Of a stretch of DNA of 64,000 bases, positions 30,251-63,950 are shown one piece after another. The translations under genes were made by a program, and so were the position numbers. Each line of letters opens with the position of its first letter. The stretch's first letter is position 1. Below the pieces are notes generated by a model that ran no database searches, was not told the origin of the DNA, and saw nothing but the letters and a program-made list of their open reading frames with translations. Location of the stretch: the NCBI GenBank assembly GCA_964455545.1, contig CAYVWQ010000010.1, positions 23,749-87,748 on the forward strand, given 5' to 3'. Origin of the DNA: an uncultured Thermoleophilaceae bacterium (GTDB lineage: Bacteria; Actinomycetota; Thermoleophilia; Solirubrobacterales; JACPNS01).

Positions 30251-31966
30251 ATGGCCGACGACGCGACACCGAGGCTCGAGCTTGCCCTCGCCCAGATAAA
30301 CCCCGTCGTGGGCGACCTCGTCGGCAACGCCGAGATGATCATCGCGCAGCTCGAGTTGGCGAAAGAGCGCGGTGCGCAGATCGTGGTGTTTCCGGAACTT
30401 GCACTGAGCGGCTACCCGCCGGAGGACCTCGTTCTGCGCGAGGACTTTCTTGTGTCGGCCTCCCGCCAGCTCGAGCGGATCGCCGCTCGGGCCAGCGGCA
30501 TCGTCGCGTTGGTCGGATTTCCCGCGGCGCACCCAGAGGGGGTCGCGAACGCACTTGCCGTGCTCGCTGACGAGGAGATCGCACAGGTTTATCGCAAGCG
30601 GTTGCTCCCCAACTACGGCGTGTTCGATGAGCGGCGCTATTTCATTCCCGGCGACGAATCCGTCGTGATCGAGGCCGGTGGAATCCCCGTGGGCCTCTCT
30701 ATCTGCGAGGACGTCTGGTTCGACGAACCCGTCTGTTCCGAACTCGCGGCCAGGGGCGCCCGGGTGATCCTCAACGCATCGGCGTCGCCCTTTCACATCG
30801 GTAAATCGCGCGAGCGGGAAGAAATGCTCAGTTCCCGCGCCAAGCGGTTCGACACGCCGATCGCATACTGCAACCTCGTCGGCGGCCAGGACGAACTCGT
30901 CTTCGACGGGGCGAGTGTGGTGGTCGGGGCCGACGGGAGCGTCATCACCCGTGGCCCGCAGTTCGATTCCGCGCTGATCCGTTGCTCGCTCGACGTCGTG
31001 GAGCCCCCCTCCAGGCGCAATCCCGACTTCACCGCGGTGCCGCTACCGCCGGCCGGTGCGCCCGAGACGGACCCGCCGGCCGACACGCTCGCACCGCGCG
31101 AGCACGAGTCCTGGGCGGCGCTGATGACCGGCGTGCGCGATTACGTGGAGAAGAACGGTTTTCCGGGGGTTCTCGTCGGCGTCTCTGGAGGCATTGATTC
31201 GGCGGTCGTGCTCGCGCTTGCCTGCGACGCGCTCGGCCCCGAGCGGGTGACGGCGGTGACGATGCCCTCGCCTTACAACAGCCCCGAGACCCGCGGCGAC
31301 GGCGATGACCTGATCGCCCGGCTCGGCTGCGCGAGGTACGAATTCGCAATCAAACCGATGATGGATGAATTCGCGGCGGCGCTCGAACAGCCGTTCTCCG
31401 GTCGCGAGCCGGACCAGACAGAAGAGAACATCCAGGCACGGATTCGCGGGATCCTCCTGATGGCCCTGTCGAACAAGTTCGGTTCGATCGTTCTCACAAC
31501 CGGCAACAAGAGTGAGATGGCCGTCGGCTACGCGACGCTCTACGGCGACATGGCCGGCGGGTTCGCGGCGCTGAAGGACGTCCCCAAGCAGCTCGTCTTC
31601 GCGCTCGCCCGCTGGCGAAATGCGAGCAGCCCGGCCAACGGGCGCTCGTCGGCAGCGGACCCGATCCCGACGGGAATCATCGATCGACCGCCTTCCGCAG
31701 AACTCCGCCCGGACCAGACCGACGAAGCCTCCCTCGGTTCGTACGAAGTGCTCGACGACGTGATCGAGCGCTACATCGAACAGGATCAGGGTCTCGCCGA
31801 GATCGTGCAGTCAGGAGTCGACGAGGAGTTTGCCCGCCGAATCCTGCGAATGATCGACCTCGCCGAGTACAAGCGCCGTCAGGCTCCCCCGGGCGTGAAG
31901 ATCACCCACCGCGCGTTTGGCCGCGACCGGCGGATGCCGATCACCGCCCGGCGTCGCTACGAGTGA
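30251..31966 (+). CDS. nadE: glutamine-dependent NAD+ synthetase
   Basis: N-terminal nitrilase-like domain (FPELALSGYPPED, CEDVW) plus a C-terminal SGGIDS ATP-pyrophosphatase domain. 571 aa. Confidence 0.95.
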   Translation: MADDATPRLELALAQINPVVGDLVGNAEMIIAQLELAKERGAQIVVFPELALSGYPPEDLVLREDFLVSASRQLERIAARASGIVALVGFPAAHPEGVANALAVLADEEIAQVYRKRLLPNYGVFDERRYFIPGDESVVIEAGGIPVGLSICEDVWFDEPVCSELAARGARVILNASASPFHIGKSREREEMLSSRAKRFDTPIAYCNLVGGQDELVFDGASVVVGADGSVITRGPQFDSALIRCSLDVVEPPSRRNPDFTAVPLPPAGAPETDPPADTLAPREHESWAALMTGVRDYVEKNGFPGVLVGVSGGIDSAVVLALACDALGPERVTAVTMPSPYNSPETRGDGDDLIARLGCARYEFAIKPMMDEFAAALEQPFSGREPDQTEENIQARIRGILLMALSNKFGSIVLTTGNKSEMAVGYATLYGDMAGGFAALKDVPKQLVFALARWRNASSPANGRSSAADPIPTGIIDRPPSAELRPDQTDEASLGSYEVLDDVIERYIEQDQGLAEIVQSGVDEEFARRILRMIDLAEYKRRQAPPGVKITHRAFGRDRRMPITARRRYE

Positions 31967-49850: not shown

Positions 49851-50150
49851 TCAGCCGTGAACGATGCTGACGACGATTCCGCCGACGATCTGGAGGACCA
49901 ACACGGCGACGATCACGCTGATGTCGATCAGCACCCCGCCGGTGTTGATCGGCGGTATAACGCGCCTGAAGAGCGCCAGATACGGCTCCGTCACGTCCTC
50001 GATGAAGCCGACGATCGGGCGCAGCACGGGGTTGTCCGGAAGGCTCGGCACCCAGGTGAGAAGGATGCGAATCAGGATCAGGATCGTGTAGATCCAGAGC
50101 AGCGCGCTGAGATACGCGGCGATGTCGACTCGGGTGATGGCGAGGGTCAT
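49851..50150 (-). CDS. YggT-family membrane protein
   Basis: 99 aa. ILIRILLTWVP ... YLALFRRVIPP pattern. Confidence 0.8.
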   Translation of the reverse strand: MTLAITRVDIAAYLSALLWIYTILILIRILLTWVPSLPDNPVLRPIVGFIEDVTEPYLALFRRVIPPINTGGVLIDISVIVAVLVLQIVGGIVVSIVHG

Positions 50151-50881
50151 TCGCCGAGGACGGTAGCGACAGCCCGGTCAACCGTCGCCCCCAACCCGGA
50201 AGCAGCGAAGCTCTCGAGCGCCTTCTCGGTCAGACCACCGGGCGATGCGACGGCGTCCATCGTCGCCTGAGTGTCGACGCCGTTCACCCGCAACAGCGCG
50301 CCCGTGCCGGCCAGCGTCTCTGCAACGACGATCTTGGCCTGTTCGTGATCCAGCCCACGCGCCGTTGCGGCCGCGATCAGCTCTTTGGCGAACAGGGCGA
50401 AGAACGCCGGTGCACACCCGCCAACCGCGGTCACGGCCTCGAAATCGGCCTCAGGCGTGGTTACGACGGTTCCGAGGCGCCCCAACAGGCGCTCGACTTC
50501 GCTTGAGGGGTCGCTCTCCGCCGCTATTGCCGTGACGCCGGCGTGCAGCTCCACGGGCGTGTTCGGCATGATTCGAACGACCGTCGCCTCCTGGTACGCC
50601 GATCGCAGCTGGTCGAGCGTCGTGGCAGCCAACACCGACACGACGGTGCCGGTGTAGCCCCCGATCTCGCCGGCAACCTCACCGAGTTGCTTCGGTTTGT
50701 GGCAGAGGAAAAGGACGTCCGCACCCGCTGCGACCTCGGCGATCGAACCGGCGGTGCCGTTCACCTCGCGCGCAAGCGCCTGTGCACGCCCGGAACCGCT
50801 GTCGCAGAACGACGCCGGCTGACCGATTCCCACGGCTATCGCGCGGGCCATGTTCCCGCTGCCGATGAAGCCGAGAGTCAT
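50147..50881 (-). CDS. proC: pyrroline-5-carboxylate reductase
   Basis: LGFIGSGNMARAI Rossmann start and a C-terminal SPGGLTEKAL motif. Confidence 0.85.
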   Translation of the reverse strand: MTLGFIGSGNMARAIAVGIGQPASFCDSGSGRAQALAREVNGTAGSIAEVAAGADVLFLCHKPKQLGEVAGEIGGYTGTVVSVLAATTLDQLRSAYQEATVVRIMPNTPVELHAGVTAIAAESDPSSEVERLLGRLGTVVTTPEADFEAVTAVGGCAPAFFALFAKELIAAATARGLDHEQAKIVVAETLAGTGALLRVNGVDTQATMDAVASPGGLTEKALESFAASGLGATVDRAVATVLGE

Positions 50882-50885
50882 GGCC

Positions 50886-51410
50886 TCAGGCCTGGTTGAA
50901 GAAGCCGCGCTCCATCAGGCGCGCACGCTCCTCGGCGGAGAAATGCACGTTGCGCGGCGTGAGCAGGAAGGTCTTGTCGGCGATTCGCTGCATGCCGCCG
51001 TCGAGCGCGTAGGTCAGTCCGCTCGCGAAATCGATCAGGCGCTTGGCCATGTCGGTGTCGGTCTCCTGCAGGTTGAGGATGACCGGGACCTGATTCTTGA
51101 ACTTGTCCGCGATCTGCTGGGCTTCATTGAAGCTCTGCGGCGCAGAGAAGTGCATCTGTCCGCTGTTTTTTGGCGAAACCGACTTCAGCGTGCGCGTAGG
51201 CGTGTCGCCGACGTCCTCGGCGAAGATGTCGTCGAAGTCGTCGCGCTTGCGGCGGGAGCTGATACGGCGGACGTTCGGCCGCTCGTCGTAGGACTGCTGG
51301 AGCTCCTGCTCGGGCTCGTAGAAGTCGTCCTCCTCGTCGTAGTAGTCGTGGTTCGACTCGGCAAGACCGAAGTAGACGAGCGCTTTGTGCCAGTTGTCTT
51401 TAACAGCCAT
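50886..51410 (-). CDS. sepF: cell division protein SepF
   Basis: N-terminal WHKALVYFGL membrane-binding helix. C-terminal PVILNLQETD...RLIDFASG domain. Confidence 0.85.
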   Translation of the reverse strand: MAVKDNWHKALVYFGLAESNHDYYDEEDDFYEPEQELQQSYDERPNVRRISSRRKRDDFDDIFAEDVGDTPTRTLKSVSPKNSGQMHFSAPQSFNEAQQIADKFKNQVPVILNLQETDTDMAKRLIDFASGLTYALDGGMQRIADKTFLLTPRNVHFSAEERARLMERGFFNQA

Positions 51411-51455
51411 TTGCAGCGGTGTTCGCGAGGGGTTCGCGATCTCCTGCCGGCCAGT

Positions 51456-52121
51456 CTATTGAGGATCGCGGTCAAACAGCACGGACCCGACACGGATCAG
51501 CGTGGCGCCCTCTTCGACTGCGACCACATAGTCCTGACTCGTGCCCATCGATAGCTCCGTGAGGCCGCGCTCTGCGGCGAGCTCCGCGAGGCGGCGAAAA
51601 TGCGGCCGAGCCGCCTCGGGGTCGACCGTCGCCGGCGGCATCGTCATCAAGCCCGCGACCGGCACGGGCGAACCGGCGATGAACTCGTCCAGGTCCGTCG
51701 GCGCAACCCCCTGTTTTGACTCTTCCCCCGAGACGTTCACCTGCACCAGAACGCGTGGCGGATCGTCAACACCGGCCAGCTTGTCGCGCGCCGACTCGCT
51801 GGCAAGCGAATGGATCATCGACACGCGCGATGCGATCTCCGGGATCTTGCGGGACTGGATCGCTCCGATGAAATGCCAGTCGAAGGCGTCGGCGAAGCGC
51901 TCCTGCTTGGCGACCATGTCCTGCAGGCGGTTCTCCGCCGCAACCCGTACGCCGGCCTCGCGGAGAATTTCAAGGCCCGCTTCGTCGACGTACTTGGTCG
52001 CGACGCAGACCGTCACCGAGGAGCGGTCGCGTCCGGCTCGATCACAGGCAGCGGAAACTTCACTCTCGACACGCTCGAGGTTGGCGCGCACGGTCGCCAG
52101 ATCGGCGCTCAGACCAGCCAC
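51456..52121 (-). CDS. YggS-family pyridoxal-phosphate homeostasis protein
   Basis: CVATKYV (PLP Lys), AENRLQD, WHFIGAIQSRK. Confidence 0.85.
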   Translation of the reverse strand: MAGLSADLATVRANLERVESEVSAACDRAGRDRSSVTVCVATKYVDEAGLEILREAGVRVAAENRLQDMVAKQERFADAFDWHFIGAIQSRKIPEIASRVSMIHSLASESARDKLAGVDDPPRVLVQVNVSGEESKQGVAPTDLDEFIAGSPVPVAGLMTMPPATVDPEAARPHFRRLAELAAERGLTELSMGTSQDYVVAVEEGATLIRVGSVLFDRDPQ

Positions 52122-52789
52122 GCGACACCCGCCTGCCGTCCGGTCACGCCGCCGTCCCGGCGATGCGAGAAAAAGACATCCGGTTCGCAGAACGTGCAGC
52201 GCTCGACCACGTGGACCGAGCCCGCGCCGCAGCGCTCGAGCCGTGCGCGGATCACGCCGGTGAGATCGAGTTGTCGGCCGCTGCTGTGCAGCTCGCCGTC
52301 GCGCCCCATAGCCTCGATCACCTCGGGGCCGACCTCGAAGTGGTCCCGGCAGATCCCAGGACCGATCACCGCTTCAAACCCGTCCTTGAACAGTTCGCCC
52401 CCGGCCTCGACGATCCCGTCGGCGACCGGGCGCCAGCCGCAGTGGATCGCGGCGAGGCGCTCGCCGTCGCTCAGGAAGACAGTGGGGCAGTCGGCGCCGG
52501 TGATCAAGATCGGGATCTCGCGCTCGCTGGTGTATCCGCCGTCGGCGATCGGAGTCTCCGCGAGCGAGTGAGCCCCGAACTCGTGCAGTTCCGCCCCGTG
52601 GACCTGGCGCAGCAATTGCATGCCGGTCAAGCCGAATCCCTCCGCGAGCCGGCTGATGTTCTCACGGACGGTTTGCGTGTCGTCGTCGGTGAAAATCCCG
52701 AGGTTCCGCGACGCGTACGGACCCGCGCTCTGCCCCCCGGTCCGCGTCGTGAACACGGCCCGCGCACCGGTCAGGGGTGCCTCGATCAC
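52109..52789 (-). CDS. pgeF: YfiH/PgeF-family (laccase-domain) peptidoglycan editing factor
   Basis: VFTTRTGG, ITGADCPTVFL and AAIHCGWRP motifs. Confidence 0.8.
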   Translation of the reverse strand: MIEAPLTGARAVFTTRTGGQSAGPYASRNLGIFTDDDTQTVRENISRLAEGFGLTGMQLLRQVHGAELHEFGAHSLAETPIADGGYTSEREIPILITGADCPTVFLSDGERLAAIHCGWRPVADGIVEAGGELFKDGFEAVIGPGICRDHFEVGPEVIEAMGRDGELHSSGRQLDLTGVIRARLERCGAGSVHVVERCTFCEPDVFFSHRRDGGVTGRQAGVAWLV

Positions 52790-53868
52790 GAGCCCACCGT
52801 GGCGCGGAGCGCCTCACGCACGCGCTCGGCCGAATCGGCCGATGCACCGGGCAGGGCGAATGCGAATCCGATCGTCTCCGGCGCCAGGTCGCGGACTTCG
52901 GCGCTGACTGCGCCGTCGTCGGAAGACGCGACGCGCGCGAGCAGGCCAGGCCCTTCGGCCACGGCCTCTCGCACGATCTTTGAATCCGCTTTCGCCAGAC
53001 CGAGGTGCGTCGTCCATTCCTTGAGCGTGTCCGCGTCCATCCCACGTGAGCACAGCGCCAGCAGCATCAGTTCCTGGCGTGCAGCAGCAGGCGGGTCGAG
53101 CAACGCCCGCGAGACGACGTACTCATCGGCATCAAACTTCGGATGCAGCGCGCGGTCGAGGCCCAGCGCGTACATCGACTCAACCGAGACGACGGCGGCC
53201 CGCTCGCCGAGCAGGTCGAGCAGCTCGTCCCGGATCCGCGCCCCGCTGACCGTGGACGGCGCGCCGGACTCGACGGCTGCACGCGCCAGGTCCTCCGTGT
53301 GAGGTTCGGCGGTGAAACCCAGACGTGCGCCGTAGCGCAGCAAGCGCAGCAAACGCGTCGGGTCGTCGATGAAGCTCTCGTCGTGCGTCACACGCAGGAC
53401 GCGCGCCATCAGGTCTGCGTCTGCGTCGTCGAACTGATGCAGTTCGCCGAAACGGTCGCTCCAGAGGCTCAGTGCCATCGCATTTATCGAGAAGTCGCGG
53501 CGGATGAGGTCGTGTTCGAGGTCCGATTTCGTCACCTCGGGTAGCGCGCCGGGAGCCGGGTAGCGCTCGGTGCGCGCCGTCGCGATGTCGACCGAGAGAC
53601 CGCCCCCGGCCGGCGTGAACGTCGCGGTCAAGAAGCGGTCGTGACGCTTGACCTCGCCGCCGATGCGTTCGGCCAGCAACTCGGCCAGTGCACCGGCGTC
53701 GGATTCTGTCATCAGGTCGAAATCGAACTGGGCGAAGCCGAGCATGAGGTCTCGCACGGCGCCTCCGACCAGGTAGGTCCCTGGTTGATCGGCGACCGCT
53801 TCCAGCAGCTGCGCGACGCCGGGGATGTTTCTCAGCGCTTCGGTCTTTGCTTCCGGCAGATAGGGCAT
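52786..53868 (-). CDS. class II tRNA nucleotidyltransferase / poly(A) polymerase family protein (short, no HD domain)
   Basis: Trimmed to MPYLPEAKTE (cat at 53866-68). GGAVRDLMLG...DFDL, RRDFSINAM and FIDDPTRLLR motifs. Confidence 0.7.
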   Translation of the reverse strand: MPYLPEAKTEALRNIPGVAQLLEAVADQPGTYLVGGAVRDLMLGFAQFDFDLMTESDAGALAELLAERIGGEVKRHDRFLTATFTPAGGGLSVDIATARTERYPAPGALPEVTKSDLEHDLIRRDFSINAMALSLWSDRFGELHQFDDADADLMARVLRVTHDESFIDDPTRLLRLLRYGARLGFTAEPHTEDLARAAVESGAPSTVSGARIRDELLDLLGERAAVVSVESMYALGLDRALHPKFDADEYVVSRALLDPPAAARQELMLLALCSRGMDADTLKEWTTHLGLAKADSKIVREAVAEGPGLLARVASSDDGAVSAEVRDLAPETIGFAFALPGASADSAERVREALRATVGS

Positions 53869-53945
53869 GACGCGAACATAGCGTTGCCGAAAACTCCGCA
53901 CCGCGTCCCGGCAGGTGTGCCCGAGGCTGCGCCTATCGTGCCCCT

Positions 53946-55271
53946 GTGCCCAAGAAACGCATCGACGGACTGGTCCGCCTGGCCTCATTGATCTTCGCTG
54001 TCGGCGCGCTGGCGCTGATCGCTTACCTCTGGATCGCGGGCAAGAACTCCGACGTCACCAACTCCGATGTGGAGTTCAACGCCCCTCAGAAGCAGAGCGG
54101 GATCAAGATCCGCCCCGAAACCTTCGTCTGGCCGATCTACGGGCGCAAGTCGGTGCGCACGCGCGACCTCGTCGCCGACGTCAAGCCGCCGTTTCGCCCA
54201 CTCTGGCGCTTCAACGCCAACCAACTGTTGGAATTTTCCCCGATCCTGGTGCGCGGCACGCTCTACGTCGTCCGCAAGGACGCTCGCGTGTACGCGATCG
54301 ACGCAAAGACCGGCAAGCAACGCTGGACCCACAAAGTCGGCAGTCTCTCGGCCGCGTCCCCGGCGTACGACGACGGCAGAATCTTCGTCGTGACGCTGAG
54401 CGGACGAATCGTGGCCATGGACGCCGAAACCGGCAACATAAAGTGGGCGAAGAAGCTCGGATCGCGATCCGAATCATCCCCGATGATCCTCGGCGACAGC
54501 GTGATTTTCGGATCCGAGAGCGGCAAGCTTTACCGCCTGCGCCAGAAAGACGGGCGCACCGAGTGGACCTACGACGCGGGCGGGGCGATCAAGGGAGGCG
54601 CCGCGTACGCGAACGGCAAGGTCTATGTCGGCGCATACGGTGGAAGCGTGCACGCCGTGCGCGCGTCCAACGGACGCCGCGTCTGGCGCGCGACCACCAG
54701 CGGTGCCCGCTTCGGGTTCGGCTCCGGCAACTTCTATGCCACCCCCGCCGTCGCGTACGGGCGCGTCTACATCGGCAATACCGACGGCAAGATGTACTCG
54801 TTCTCGACCAAGAACGGCCGCCTCGGCTGGTCGCGCGGCACCGGCTCCTACGTCTACGGCGCCGTCGCCGTGGACAACGTCGAAAACCTCGGACCGACGG
54901 TGTTCTTCGGTTCCTACAGCGGCAAGTTCTACGCGCTCAATGCCGCGAACGGAAACACGCGCTGGGTCTATGACTCTGGCGGCGAGATCTCCGGCGCTCC
55001 CACCGTCGTCGGCAAGGTCGTCTACTTCTCGACGATCGACACGACGAACACGTACGGCCTGAGCACGACCAACGGTCATCGACGGATGTATCGCGGGAGC
55101 GGTGCATACAACCCCGTGATCTCAGACGGGAACCGGATCTACTGGACGGGCTACGAGTCGATCTCGGCGCTCGTCGAGCGCAAGGACTACGCCCGCGAGG
55201 CTCGCGAACGACGAGCGGCGCTACGCAAAGAGGAGCGCGAAAAACGCGAGGCGAAGCGGAAGAGCCGCTAG
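53946..55271 (+). CDS. membrane-anchored PQQ-like beta-propeller repeat protein (BamB-like fold)
   Basis: N-terminal TM. Repeated G-x-[VL]-Y-[AV]-[ILV]-[DN]-x-x-[TN]-G-x-x-x-W units ([78 protein letters not shown]). Confidence 0.8.
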
Positions 55272-61009: not shown

Positions 61010-62308
61010 CTACGCGTGGACCGGCTCTGTCGAGACTCGCTCGATATGAGCCCCGAGGTCACGCAGGCGCTGGTCGATGTTCTCGTACCCGCGGTCGATC
61101 TGGCGGATGTTGCCGATCTCGGAAGTCCCCTTGGCGCAGAGTGCTGCGATCAGCAGCGCCATGCCCGCGCGGATGTCCGGGCTCTCAAGCCGCTCACCAC
61201 GCAGACGCGAACGCCCGATGACGATCGCGCGGTGCGGATCGCAGAGCGTGATGTTCGCCCCCATCGCGACGAGCTTGTCGACGAAGAAGAGGCGGTTTTC
61301 GAACATCTTCTCGTGGATCATCACGCTGCCCTGCGCCTGTGTTGCGAGCGCGAGCGCGATGCTCGTGAGGTCGGCCGGGAAGGCCGGCCACGGGCCGTCC
61401 TCGATCTTGGGCATCATCTCGCCGGCGTCGTACTTGACCAGCATCTCCTGGTCGGCAGGGACGATCGTGTCGTCGCCGTCGAAGTCGATCTGCACGCCGA
61501 GGCGCTCGAAACCGAGCCGCGTCATGCGCAGATCCTCGGGAGCCGAATCCTTGATGCGCAGCTCCCCGCCGGTCGCGGCGGCGAGCGCGATGAAGCTGCC
61601 GACCTCGATGTGGTCGGGGGAAATGCGGTGGTTGACGCCGTGGAGCTTCTCGGCTCCGTGGACGTGCATCACGTTCGAGCCGATTCCAGCGATCTCCGCG
61701 CCCATCCCCTCGAGCATTCGCGCGAGGTTGACGACGTGCGGCTCGCTGGCAGCGTTGCGGATGATCGTCTCGCCCGGCACCATCGCCGCAGCCAGGAGCG
61801 CGTTCTCGGTCGCCATCACAGAAGGCTCGTCCATCATGAAGTCGCAGGAGCGCAGGCCGTTCGGGCTCTCGATCTTGATCCAGCGGTCGACTTCGATCTC
61901 GGCACCGAGCGCGCGGAAGGCGTCGAGGTGCGGATCGAGCCGGCGGCGGCCGATCACGTCGCCGCCCGGCGGCGGCATCTCGGCGCGCCCGAAGCGGGCC
62001 AGCAACGGGCCGGCCAGCAGGAAGGAGGCGCGGATGCGGTTGGCGAGATCTTTGTCGACGTCCTGGTGGTCGACGGCCGAAGCGTTCATCACAAGCTGGT
62101 GGTCGCCGCGCCACTCGATCGTCACGCCGAGGTTTTCGAGCAGCGCGAGCATCGCGTCGACGTCGCGGATGCGCGGCACGTTCTCGAGCACCACCTCGTC
62201 CTCGGTCAGAAGCGCGGCGGCGATGCACGGCAGCGCGGCATTCTTGTTGCCGGCCGGCACGATCGTTCCTGACAGCGGCTGGCCGCCTTCGATTACGAGC
62301 TTCTGCAC
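61010..62308 (-). CDS. murA: UDP-N-acetylglucosamine 1-carboxyvinyltransferase
   Basis: GTG 62308 preceded by an [20 protein letters not shown]. Active-site loop is [16 protein letters not shown], with Asp where E. coli has Cys115. Confidence 0.95.
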
Positions 62309-62477
62309 CTTGCGATCTCCTTGGCGAACGGTCTCTCGGACGCTGCGGTGGACACTCGGGGAGCCGAGCGAATCAACCGCTTCCTGGGGGTTTTCGGCGC
62401 CGTTCGCGGCGCTTGACAGCGGGTTTTCGAGGTTAACACGCATGCTCATGTATTCGCGTTGCCGCTGCCTCCATCCT

Positions 62478-62819
62478 TCAACTGCGCGCCCACGGCCCAC
62501 CGGACGAAGCCCACGACCTGAGCGCCTCCACGTCTTCGAACGCTTCAGTGGCGACGGTCCCGGCGCGGTGCCGTTCAACGATCACGCCGCCGTTTGCCGC
62601 ACGCTCCGGCTCGTCGACCTCCCAAGGACGTTCGATCTGCCAGGCGGCCCCCCGGAGCACCCAGGCGACGATGTGTTCGACGCGGCAGATCGCGGCAGCG
62701 CCCGGCCCTTCGCCATCGCGGATCAGATAGTGGTCTGCAGGATCCGTTGCACGCCCGCAGCGGGCGCAAACCGCTTGGGAATCGGGTTTTTCAGGCATCG
62801 TCGGTCGGTCCTCGGTCAT
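62478..62819 (-). CDS. hypothetical protein with CxxC, probable SOS-regulated
   Basis: 113 aa from ATG 62819, or 106 aa from ATG 62798, which has a GAGGA RBS. A LexA-type box lies immediately upstream. No family recognised. Confidence 0.5.
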
Positions 62820-62820
62820 A

Positions 62821-62834
62821 CGAACAGTTGTTCG
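62821..62834. promoter_or_regulatory. LexA (Cheo-type) SOS box CGAACAGTTGTTCG
   Basis: Perfect GAAC-N4-GTTC with CG/CG flanks, matching the Gram-positive/actinobacterial consensus CGAACRNRYGTTYC. Confidence 0.6.
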
Positions 62835-62865
62835 TGTCTTTCCATCCGGACGCGCGCGCAGGATA

Positions 62866-62879
62866 CGAACATACGTTCT
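62866..62879. promoter_or_regulatory. LexA (Cheo-type) SOS box CGAACATACGTTCT
   Basis: GAAC-N4-GTTC, 45 bp centre-to-centre from the first box and 34 nt upstream of the plus-strand small ORF ATG. Confidence 0.6.
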
Positions 62880-62912
62880 TGCCAGATCTTGAATCGCGAA
62901 GGAAACACCGCA

Positions 62913-63152
62913 ATGTCAAACGCAGCCGCAACTCCGCTTCTGAAGGGCCTCGACCTCGTCGTCGACTTCGCCACGCTCGGCGAGTACCGAGTCGTCACCG
63001 AGGTCGAGCGCCGTCCGGTGAAAGATGGCGATGTCTGGGCCGAGGACATCGAATGGTCGGCGCCCCCGCGCCGCCGCGCGAGCACAGAGACGACCTGCTC
63101 GCTCCCCCGCGCGCGTGACCGCCGGTTCGCGCGCGAGCGCGTTCGCGGATAG
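62913..63152 (+). CDS. hypothetical small protein (79 aa) with basic C-terminus, candidate SOS-induced gene
   Basis: This is the last 79 codons of a long shadow ORF. ATG 62913 is preceded by GAAGGA. G+C-rich third positions in the first 50 codons. Unverified. Confidence 0.4.
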   Translation: MSNAAATPLLKGLDLVVDFATLGEYRVVTEVERRPVKDGDVWAEDIEWSAPPRRRASTETTCSLPRARDRRFARERVRG

Positions 63153-63950
63153 TCAGACATCAATCTCACCGCGCGCGAACGTCGTGCACGTGCCGCTCAG
63201 TTCCACCCGTTCATCCTCGGGCCGGTAGGTGCAGGTCAGGTAGCCGCCGCGCTCCGAGGCCTGGAACGAACGCAGCGTGTCTTTGCCGAGCCGCTCGGAC
63301 CAGAACGGCGCCAAGGCGCAGTGCGCCGAGCCCGTCGCGGGGTCTTCCGGGATGCCCACCCCAGGCGCGAACATCCGCGCGCAGATGTCGTAGTCCGACG
63401 ACTGCGACGGAGCGCTGACCAGCAGGTCGCCGCGCGGCAGTCTCGCCACGGCGGCCAGGTCTGGCTCGAGCGCGACGACGTCCCGCTCTGTGGTCAGCAC
63501 CAGAAACGCGTAGCCGGCCGTGAAGAGCACCTCACCGGCGTCGACGCCGGCCGCGGCCAAGGTCGCCTCCACCACCTCCGGATCGGCCTGACCGACGGAA
63601 TACGCGGGGAAGTCCATCGCATACCCCCCCGAAGCCCTGCGGACCACCAGCGTGCCGCTCATCGTCTCGAAACGAAGCTCGGCGGCCTCCGAGGCGAGCT
63701 CCGCGTAAATCACGTGCGCCGTCGCCAAAGTCGCGTGGCCACATAGGGCAATCTCGGCGGCCGGCGTGAACCACCGCAGACGAATCGAGTCACCTTCAGA
63801 GACGAAGAACGCCGTCTCGGAGAGATTGTTCTGAGCGCCGATCGCCTGCAGCACCTCGTCCGGAAGCCACTCATCCAGTGGCACGACCGCCGCTGGATTC
63901 CCGGTGAACGGGCCACGGTCGAAGGCGTTGACGATGAACTGGCTGAGCAC
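63153..63950 (-). CDS. PhzF-family isomerase/epimerase-like protein
   Basis: FTGNPAAVV, NLSETAFF, LCGHATLA and a second-half CAL/GSAHC motif. Confidence 0.85.
   Translation of the reverse strand: MLSQFIVNAFDRGPFTGNPAAVVPLDEWLPDEVLQAIGAQNNLSETAFFVSEGDSIRLRWFTPAAEIALCGHATLATAHVIYAELASEAAELRFETMSGTLVVRRASGGYAMDFPAYSVGQADPEVVEATLAAAGVDAGEVLFTAGYAFLVLTTERDVVALEPDLAAVARLPRGDLLVSAPSQSSDYDICARMFAPGVGIPEDPATGSAHCALAPFWSERLGKDTLRSFQASERGGYLTCTYRPEDERVELSGTCTTFARGEIDV

Follow-up and report, generated by a model that had tools for sequence, protein, structure and literature searches.

Two LexA-type boxes and a putative PafBC-type promoter ahead of an orphan small-protein gene of Solirubrobacterales: a predicted DNA-damage-inducible locus

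The DNA considered here, a window of 64,000 nucleotides from an uncultured Thermoleophilaceae bacterium (contig CAYVWQ010000010.1, assembly GCA_964455545.1), contains close to its right end a spacer of 93 nt, measured from ATG 62819 on the minus strand to ATG 62913 on the plus strand, which separates two divergent small genes and bears two palindromes of the kind recognized by actinobacterial LexA. The plus-strand gene encodes a protein of 79 amino acids (aa), the minus-strand gene a CxxC-containing protein adjacent to murA. A first-pass annotation had read the locus as a candidate SOS module in which one or both small genes are damage-induced and, from the proximity of murA, had thought a checkpoint role in wall synthesis or cell division worth a test. 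Solirubrobacterales and Thermoleophilia in general are abundant soil actinobacteria, and we know of no experimentally studied DNA-damage response in them. The questions raised by the locus are thus which gene the palindromes serve, from what promoter it is transcribed and in which process its product may take part. The explanation that we favor with moderate confidence is that the spacer constitutes a compact DNA-damage-inducible promoter and the 79-aa product a damage-tolerance factor, most likely linked to the split-ImuB/DnaE2 translesion machinery.

LexA-type boxes and the genes on either side

The coordinates, sequences and spacing of the two boxes given in the first-pass annotation proved correct on re-reading (Table 1): they lie 45 bp apart from start to start, and box 2 ends 33 nt before ATG 62913. 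With respect to the palindrome CGAAC-N4-GTTCG, box 1 is perfect and box 2 carries one mismatch, in the last base. GAAC-N4-GTTC occurs three times in the 64 kb, twice as these boxes and once at 31385 inside a 571-aa NAD-synthetase-like coding sequence (CDS), the latter being judged irrelevant, while CGAACNNNNGTTCK gives 4 strand-matches against 0.76 expected, a number reached in 3 of 100 shuffles. When the window was scanned with a position weight matrix (PWM) for LexA, symmetrized and built from 38 imuB operators of related genomes, box 2 ranked first (23.3 bits) and box 1 second (16.2 bits), the next-best site (12.8 bits) falling within a CDS. The operators that supplied this matrix are themselves informative: in 38/38 related loci ATACGAACATAYGTTCG borders directly on the initiation codon of an ImuB-like gene opening an imuB/imuB-C/dnaE2 cassette, always in the perfect form (g)tATACGAACATAYGTTCG, and box 2 with its flank (ATACGAACATACGTTCT) is identical to this imuB operator (ATACGAACATACGTTCG) at 16 of 17 positions. 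At 4133-4149 of L011, as in the 37 other loci, the cassette box ends 0-1 nt before the ATG, implying a very short leader or none. Among bacterial LexA targets the imuB/dnaE2 cassette is the one conserved most widely, as is reportedly documented in the surveys of Erill and Abella. Because the same operator stands at all 38 imuB-like cassettes and the boxes occupy the top ranks of the PWM, their prediction as bona fide SOS-type LexA operators is well supported, and the first-pass annotation was right to treat them as genuine. Perfect Cheo-like palindromes were also encountered at L007 13259 and L009 14528, in a conserved and apparently non-coding stretch beside an open reading frame (ORF) for a LAGLIDADG homing endonuclease; this stretch, which we presume to be an rRNA intron region, is probably unrelated to the SOS response.

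The ORF behind box 2, whose conservation the first-pass annotation had put forward as a check, has 46 homologues, all of them from Solirubrobacterales (in metagenome-assembled genomes, MAGs, or metagenomes) and all labelled “hypothetical”. A scan with the family profile over one genome per species gave 56 loci, all from Solirubrobacterales or Thermoleophilia, among which L001-L010 hold orthologues of the window gene; these ten and the window make up the 11 sequences aligned below. Differences between the 11 orthologues concentrate in third codon positions (933, against 532 in first and 305 in second ones), and 629 of 1227 differing codon pairs are synonymous. Judged by this pattern together with the conservation in 46 homologues, the 79-aa ORF constitutes a real gene, on which purifying selection acts. 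Invariant are 21 residues, namely D14, D18-F-A-T-L-G-E-Y-R26, W42, W48, R55, C62, L64-P-R-A67, R70, A73 and R74. The two halves of the protein differ in predicted isoelectric point (pI), being acidic at the N-terminal side (4.8) and basic at the C-terminal one (11.4), which carries W42, W48, C62 and LPRAR..R..AR and ends in a predicted helix. No membrane segment (maximal 19-residue Kyte-Doolittle hydropathy 1.22) and no domain match was found in the protein, the product, of 9 kDa, being predicted as soluble and for the most part disordered, with an Arg-rich C-terminal helix.

As the first-pass annotation had supposed, neither small protein belongs to a recognized family. For the 79-aa protein no match was obtained in Pfam, NCBIfam (none at E <= 1), PADLOC, PHROGs or PDB sequences, viral contigs yielded no member of the family, and neither DFATLGEY nor regulation by LexA in Thermoleophilia was found mentioned in the literature. 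Profile search over 1.84 billion representative proteins returned only 28 clusters, three of which are large repeat proteins (P0053, P0054 and P0071) that are not family members, the others being small proteins of this family. By its sequence the DFATLGEY family is thus new, restricted to Solirubrobacterales/Thermoleophilia and devoid of known relatives or literature. Two of the large proteins, P0053 and P0054, are giant surface proteins of Gram-positive bacteria that carry 14-21 Ig-like repeats and meet the profile through “SDFATVVDFxTxGDYTVTL” in a match judged spurious; their strand pattern “DFxTVVDFxTxGDYTV” hints that the segment DFATLGEYRVV may form a beta-hairpin. Two other assignments were tried and rejected: DFATLGEY as a docking motif of the RecA N-terminal-like type gave an hhalign probability of 0.3%, and derivation of the protein by splitting off ImuB-C is contradicted by the separate ImuB-C ORF of the cassettes (fused in L036 and L053) and by the lack of similarity to it. 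No tblastn match to ImuB-C was present in the window.

The relation of the boxes to the CxxC gene is of another kind. Its homologues begin at the position of Met8, which makes ATG 62798 (106 aa) the likelier start; it is preceded by GAGGA, and the gene caller likewise gives 106 aa in L057, a contig of the same species. The motifs TGGAAA-N18-TATGAC and GAGGA, from which the first-pass annotation had composed a promoter feeding ATG 62798, are indeed present on the minus strand, but a start directed by TATGAC would fall downstream of GAGGA, so that the pair is inconsistent. In L001-L004 the orthologue appears, from its sequence context, to be leaderless behind a TAGnTT hexamer situated 6 nt beyond box 1. 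Whichever reading is taken, the CxxC gene would have box 1 on its core promoter or its 5′ end, and LexA would be expected to co-repress this gene in the window clade only. Homologues of the CxxC gene were found in 37 loci; a LexA box lies within 200 nt of it in 11 of them. In the window and L001-L005 box 1 keeps a distance of 23 nt from the gene start, and in L016 a LexA box stands between the CxxC gene and a divergently oriented Y-family gene. The other 26 loci have no box within 200 nt, and the gene is regarded as primarily murA-linked. The AlphaFold2 (AF2) model of its product (pLDDT 72) consists of two hairpin-plus-helix units and has no Foldseek match in PDB at E <= 0.001, nor is there any significant match in Pfam, NCBIfam, PADLOC, PHROGs or PDB sequences; the homologue of L011, with two CxxC...CxxxH units, gives weak matches to zinc ribbons and DUF7576. 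Such distant homologues (L011 1410-1742, minus strand) possess two CxxCG...FCxxxH units, the window protein having lost the cysteines of the second one.

A predicted promoter between the boxes

Alignment of the 11 orthologous loci revealed a common cassette, cGAACAnnTGTTCg - (5-6 nt, T-rich) - TTCCGTCCG - N10 - cAnnAT - ACGAACATAYGTTCTT, present in 11/11. Box half-sites and the distance of 44-45 bp between the boxes are invariant, TTCCGTCCG is invariant or nearly so (strictly in TTCC-T-C-G), the A and the AT of the hexamer are invariant, whereas free variation is seen in N10 and in the outer flanks. In L010 the CxxC gene is absent, murA is directly divergent and both boxes are kept; both are therefore attributed to the 79-aa gene, and the prediction that they gate this conserved and real small gene is well supported. 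The SOS module of the first-pass annotation stands for the 79-aa gene, which is conserved and of SOS type, and is not supported for the CxxC gene, which mostly does without a box and is dispensable for the persistence of both.

A sigma-70 -35/-10 pair was not found in the spacer, and an Rfam scan of the region gave no match. The pattern GTC[CT][GT]-N10-nAnnnT, however, occurs in one fixed register in 53/57 family loci, where 0.03 occurrences per 160 nt would be expected (background rate 0.2 per kb and strand). In 45 loci the hexamer is followed, 7-8 nt on, by an in-frame ATG or GTG. A start codon at this distance from the hexamer is the geometry of leaderless actinobacterial mRNAs, and the spacing therefore implies leaderless transcripts and would fix the start site. 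The mycobacterial PafBC motif is described as tGTCgg(N10)tA(N3)T, with its 5′ part at -23 to -28 and strictly conserved GTC, replacing the -35 element in what is called sigma adaptation (PMC8635444). In all ten orthologous loci the inter-box element matches this consensus both in sequence and in position, so that prediction of the inter-box promoter as -35-less and, in the orthologues, of PafBC type is well supported. The PafBC-type -26/-10 promoter, the link to the DnaE2 cassette and the likelier 62798 start are what the first-pass annotation had missed.

In the window the predicted start falls at ~62871, about 7 nt after CAGGAT and inside box 2. L007, L008 and L010 have as the sole possible start codon an ATG located within box 2 (GAACATATGTTC), and several database homologues are mis-called with an N-terminal “YEHMF” that is nothing else than box 2 translated; the window reads ACG in place of this ATG, and the Shine-Dalgarno-like GAAGGAAA precedes ATG 62913. 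The promoter is thus envisaged as a -26 element (cGTCCG in orthologues, cATCCG here) placed at -28 to -23, followed by N10 and CAGGAT. LexA dimers bound to box 2 (-5 to +9) would cover the start site, while those on box 1 (-50 to -37) would sit just upstream of the activator element, keeping the 79-aa gene silent until RecA-stimulated cleavage of LexA. An activator of the WYL type would then probably boost transcription through sigma adaptation, and the divergent CxxC gene would, in this clade, be co-repressed via box 1 as a by-product.

Table 1. Features of the locus, with positions in the window
Feature	Position	Strand	Evidence or remark
murA (UDP-N-acetylglucosamine 1-carboxyvinyltransferase)	61010..62446	-	TIGR01072 483 bits and PF00275; syntenic in related loci; context only, outside the module
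CxxC...CxxxH protein, conserved murA neighbour	62478..62798 (106 aa); alternative start 62819 (113 aa)	-	Starts of homologues
LexA (Cheo-type) operator box 1, CGAACAGTTGTTCG, predicted	62821..62834	.	Perfect palindrome; PWM rank 2; half-sites invariant in 11 orthologous loci
Position of PafBC-type “-26 element”, cATCCG	62843..62848	+	Each of the ten orthologous loci has cGTC(C/T)G
Predicted -10 hexamer CAGGAT (family pattern cAnnAT / TAnnnT)	62859..62864	+	A at 2 and AT at 5-6 invariant in orthologue alignment
LexA (Cheo-type) operator box 2, CGAACATACGTTCT, predicted	62866..62879	.	PWM rank 1; ATACGAACATAYGTTCTT invariant in 11 loci
Shine-Dalgarno-like GAAGGAAA, 7 nt before ATG 62913	62898..62905	+	Sequence; AAGGAG or GAAGGAG at the same place in L001-L005
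79-aa “DFATLGEY” family protein	62913..63152	+	46 homologues, invariant columns, codon-position pattern
PhzF-family isomerase, convergent with the 79-aa gene	63153..63950	-	PF02567 E = 2.5e-56; context only

Among the neighbours, the PhzF-family gene is syntenic in L001-L010 except L005 and L008, and hisZ, hisG, hisD, hisB and hisF lie farther upstream in the window together with an ftsZ-sepF-ylmD group. The latter (49851-53988; ftsZ, ylmD/ylmE-like, sepF and a yggT-like gene, identified by eye from N-termini only) is 9-13 kb upstream of the module. The G+C content is ~67% for the window and ~59% for the box-bearing spacer. A 691-aa ORF (61077-63152, plus strand), the tail of which coincides with the 79-aa gene, crosses murA and the CxxC gene in antisense orientation and is regarded as a high-GC artefact.

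The wider family and the ImuB-like/ImuB-C/DnaE2 cassette

The only universal protein element of the family is the N-terminal (phi)DL(phi)(phi)DFATLGEY; four subfamilies are distinguished, with tails that differ and are all Arg-rich. The first (window and L001-L010) has two LexA boxes; the second, of about 30 loci, has none and carries a PafBC-type promoter and a TGCAAG-N6-TGCA repeat; the third (six loci) has one box over the start codon and the fourth (about eight loci) one box fused to the -26 element. The repeat, in full the direct repeat TGCAAG-N6-(C/T)TGCA(A/G), is conserved in subfamilies 2-4 just upstream of CCGTCCG (L011 9930-9960 and equivalent positions of L012-L056), some 30-50 nt upstream of the -26 element in, for example, L036 and L052; it is absent in the window subfamily, where box 1 takes its place, and an additional regulator may bind there.

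Downstream of dnaE2, on the same strand and at a distance of 116-3635 nt, is where the family gene is situated in 40/56 species loci; in 13/40 the gap is shorter than 300 nt, the promoter then starting within tens of nucleotides of the dnaE2 stop. The cassette concerned comprises a short Y-family (ImuB-like, PF00817) gene, a standalone ImuB-C and dnaE2, the Y-family gene and dnaE2 being found in 38 loci. Types of imuB/dnaE2 cassettes have been described (PMC6511836; PMC12926913), and the present one corresponds to “split ImuB” (PMC12926913). Standalone ImuB-C-like ORFs of ~80 aa lie between the Y-family gene and dnaE2 (L011 5379-5606, L016 6146-6418 and about 36 other loci), and in two species ImuB-C is fused to the Y-family protein (L036 6074-6373, L053 6343-6570), giving a split/fused ImuB series within one order. 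The short Y-family protein's conserved C-terminal tail is, from its sequence, a candidate for a RecA-N-terminal-like element.

Gene order in the genomes with the cassette is hisZ-murA-CxxC-(IDH)-(phosphoesterase)-[LexA box]-Y-family-ImuB-C-dnaE2-(hydrolase)-small gene-peptidase. From this order the window arrangement is most simply understood as the same gene block minus the polymerase genes, and the inherited order explains the proximity of murA without a functional link to it. Conserved adjacency and shared damage control are the grounds on which a link between the 79-aa protein and the Y-family/ImuB-C/DnaE2 machinery is proposed as likeliest, the protein conceivably docking on a conserved partner through its DFATLGEY motif; taken by itself, this specific link is held tentatively. 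Speculative, too, is its fullest version, namely that DFATLGEY proteins are an extra component or regulator of the split-ImuB/DnaE2/RecA translesion complex of Thermoleophilia, switched on via LexA and PafBC-like arms, and that the window clade might have kept a stand-alone, doubly LexA-gated gene after the polymerase genes had moved or been lost.

A number of observations weigh against the damage-inducible promoter and the DnaE2 link as proposed. As to regulation, the otherwise invariant GTC of the -26 element reads ATC in the window (G-to-A at 62844, repeated at ~704 of the same-species contig L057) and the -10 hexamer begins with C instead of T; for these reasons the activator arm may be weak or lost in this species, LexA derepression then being the main switch. 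In the largest subfamily a PafBC-type promoter is present and a LexA box is absent, so that not every family gene is regulated together with the cassette. The first-pass annotation had expected the motif at canonical SOS genes, and this holds for the imuB-like/imuB-C/dnaE2 cassettes in 38/38 cases; recA and lexA gave no tblastn match in the window and 56 loci with E. coli sequences as queries, and no lexA, recA or pafBC gene was noted in the window or related loci, no search having been aimed at pafBC. As to the link, the family gene is in every case served by a promoter of its own, about 20 loci have an oppositely oriented alpha/beta-hydrolase gene between it and dnaE2, and 16 loci of subfamilies 1 and 3 (the ten window orthologues included), as well as the window, are without imuB/dnaE2 within the DNA examined; in an ImuB profile search no window-clade MAG was among the best 120 of 6606 matches. 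The small-subunit slot is already filled by ImuB-C, to which the 79-aa protein is unrelated. Finally, the AF2 model of this protein is of low confidence (pLDDT 63.6), being mostly coil with a helix at 67-78.

Several of the same facts would fit a damage effector acting independently of the cassette, for example a DinI- or RecX-like modulator of RecA/LexA or a nucleic-acid binder operating through the Arg-rich tail, in which case adjacency to dnaE2 would be synteny inherited within a “damage island”. In favor of this are the gene's own promoter, present throughout, and its retention with LexA boxes in the 16 loci where imuB and dnaE2 are not nearby; the main subfamily being wired to a PafBC-type promoter and the cassette to LexA, the supply of a small subunit by ImuB-C and the strongly basic C-half point in the same direction. 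On the other side, adjacency to dnaE2 is maintained over deep divergence (identity of the ImuB-like protein down to ~50%) with gaps down to 116 nt, and no similarity to DinI, RecX or other known families is seen. We regard this independent role as possible, and about as likely as the specific link to the DnaE2 machinery.

An SOS-induced inhibitor of division or of wall synthesis tied to murA, in the manner of YneA, ChiZ, DivS and SidA, is improbable. The gene is small, lineage-specific and equipped with LexA boxes, murA is 370 nt away and ftsZ/sepF are about 9-12 kb away in the window; YneA, ChiZ, DivS and SidA, however, are membrane proteins, whereas the 79-aa product has no membrane segment and no LysM or other domain, and the adjacency to murA is conserved gene order, the place of the small gene in 40 species being behind dnaE2 and several kb from murA. 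The wall or division checkpoint suggested by the first-pass annotation thus has little support, although a cytoplasmic mode resembling SulA is conceivable. Very improbable is, finally, that the boxes mainly regulate the CxxC protein with the 79-aa ORF incidental or non-coding, or that they are not LexA sites: box 1 does keep its distance from the CxxC start in six loci and LexA binding is here predicted from motifs, but both boxes survive loss of the CxxC gene in L010, most CxxC homologues have none, the ORF has a coding substitution pattern with its 21 invariant residues, and the same operator precedes the imuB/dnaE2 cassette.

Returning to the favored explanation, the locus would provide a LexA operator, directly testable, and a PafBC-type promoter, both inferred and the first ones for Thermoleophilia, evidence for a sigma-adaptation promoter of PafBC type far outside mycobacteria, and an orphan small-protein family wired to both inputs. 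If the family indeed works with ImuB-like, ImuB-C and DnaE2 proteins, a mutasome type so far described by comparative genomics only would gain a further component; should the link to DnaE2 be wrong, the protein would remain a clean case of a damage effector specific to one lineage. In addition, the promoter may serve as a compact natural model for the interplay between a repressor and an activator replacing the -35 element. Known already are SOS-regulated lineage-specific small proteins as such and the dual LexA and PafBC control of mycobacterial damage genes such as recA; new are the protein family, the fixed architecture of two operators plus a -26 element and the association with a split-ImuB/DnaE2 cassette.

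Comparison with known damage-response systems

The boxes share half-sites and overlap with the promoter with the Cheo box (TCGAAC-N4-GTTCGA) of actinobacterial and Gram-positive LexA, and the same motif precedes the dnaE2 cassette of the same order. They differ from tandem Cheo-box operators in being set at a fixed distance of 44-45 bp so as to bracket a promoter without -35 element, one of the two being shared with the divergent gene; LexA binding is here a prediction. The promoter itself resembles mycobacterial PafBC-dependent (RecA-NDp) promoters (PMC8635444) in GTC(C/T)G, the 10-nt spacer, nAnnnT and the missing -35 element, whereas its consensus is CCGTCCG, LexA boxes stand on both sides, the window has ATC for GTC, and subfamilies 2-4 add the TGCAAG-N6-TGCA repeat.

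With respect to the protein, small subunits of SOS mutasomes (UmuD′, YolD/YqjX, ImuA′ and standalone ImuB-C) are likewise small, damage-regulated and encoded beside a Y-family/DnaE2 cassette, a position that the family gene occupies in 40/56 species loci and not in the window or its ten orthologues. In S. aureus, yolD can sit apart from the polymerase gene while keeping its own LexA box (PMC6511836), and the 79-aa gene is similar in being separated from a polymerase and having a LexA box of its own. It departs from these subunits in lacking sequence similarity, in being predicted as mostly disordered and not as a beta-barrel and in having its own promoter, the cassette already possessing ImuB-C. 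YneA, ChiZ (Rv2719c), DivS and SidA, again, are small, lineage-specific and preceded by LexA boxes; as distinct from them, the 79-aa protein has no transmembrane or LysM segment and no homology to them, and its genomic association is with dnaE2 and not with division genes.

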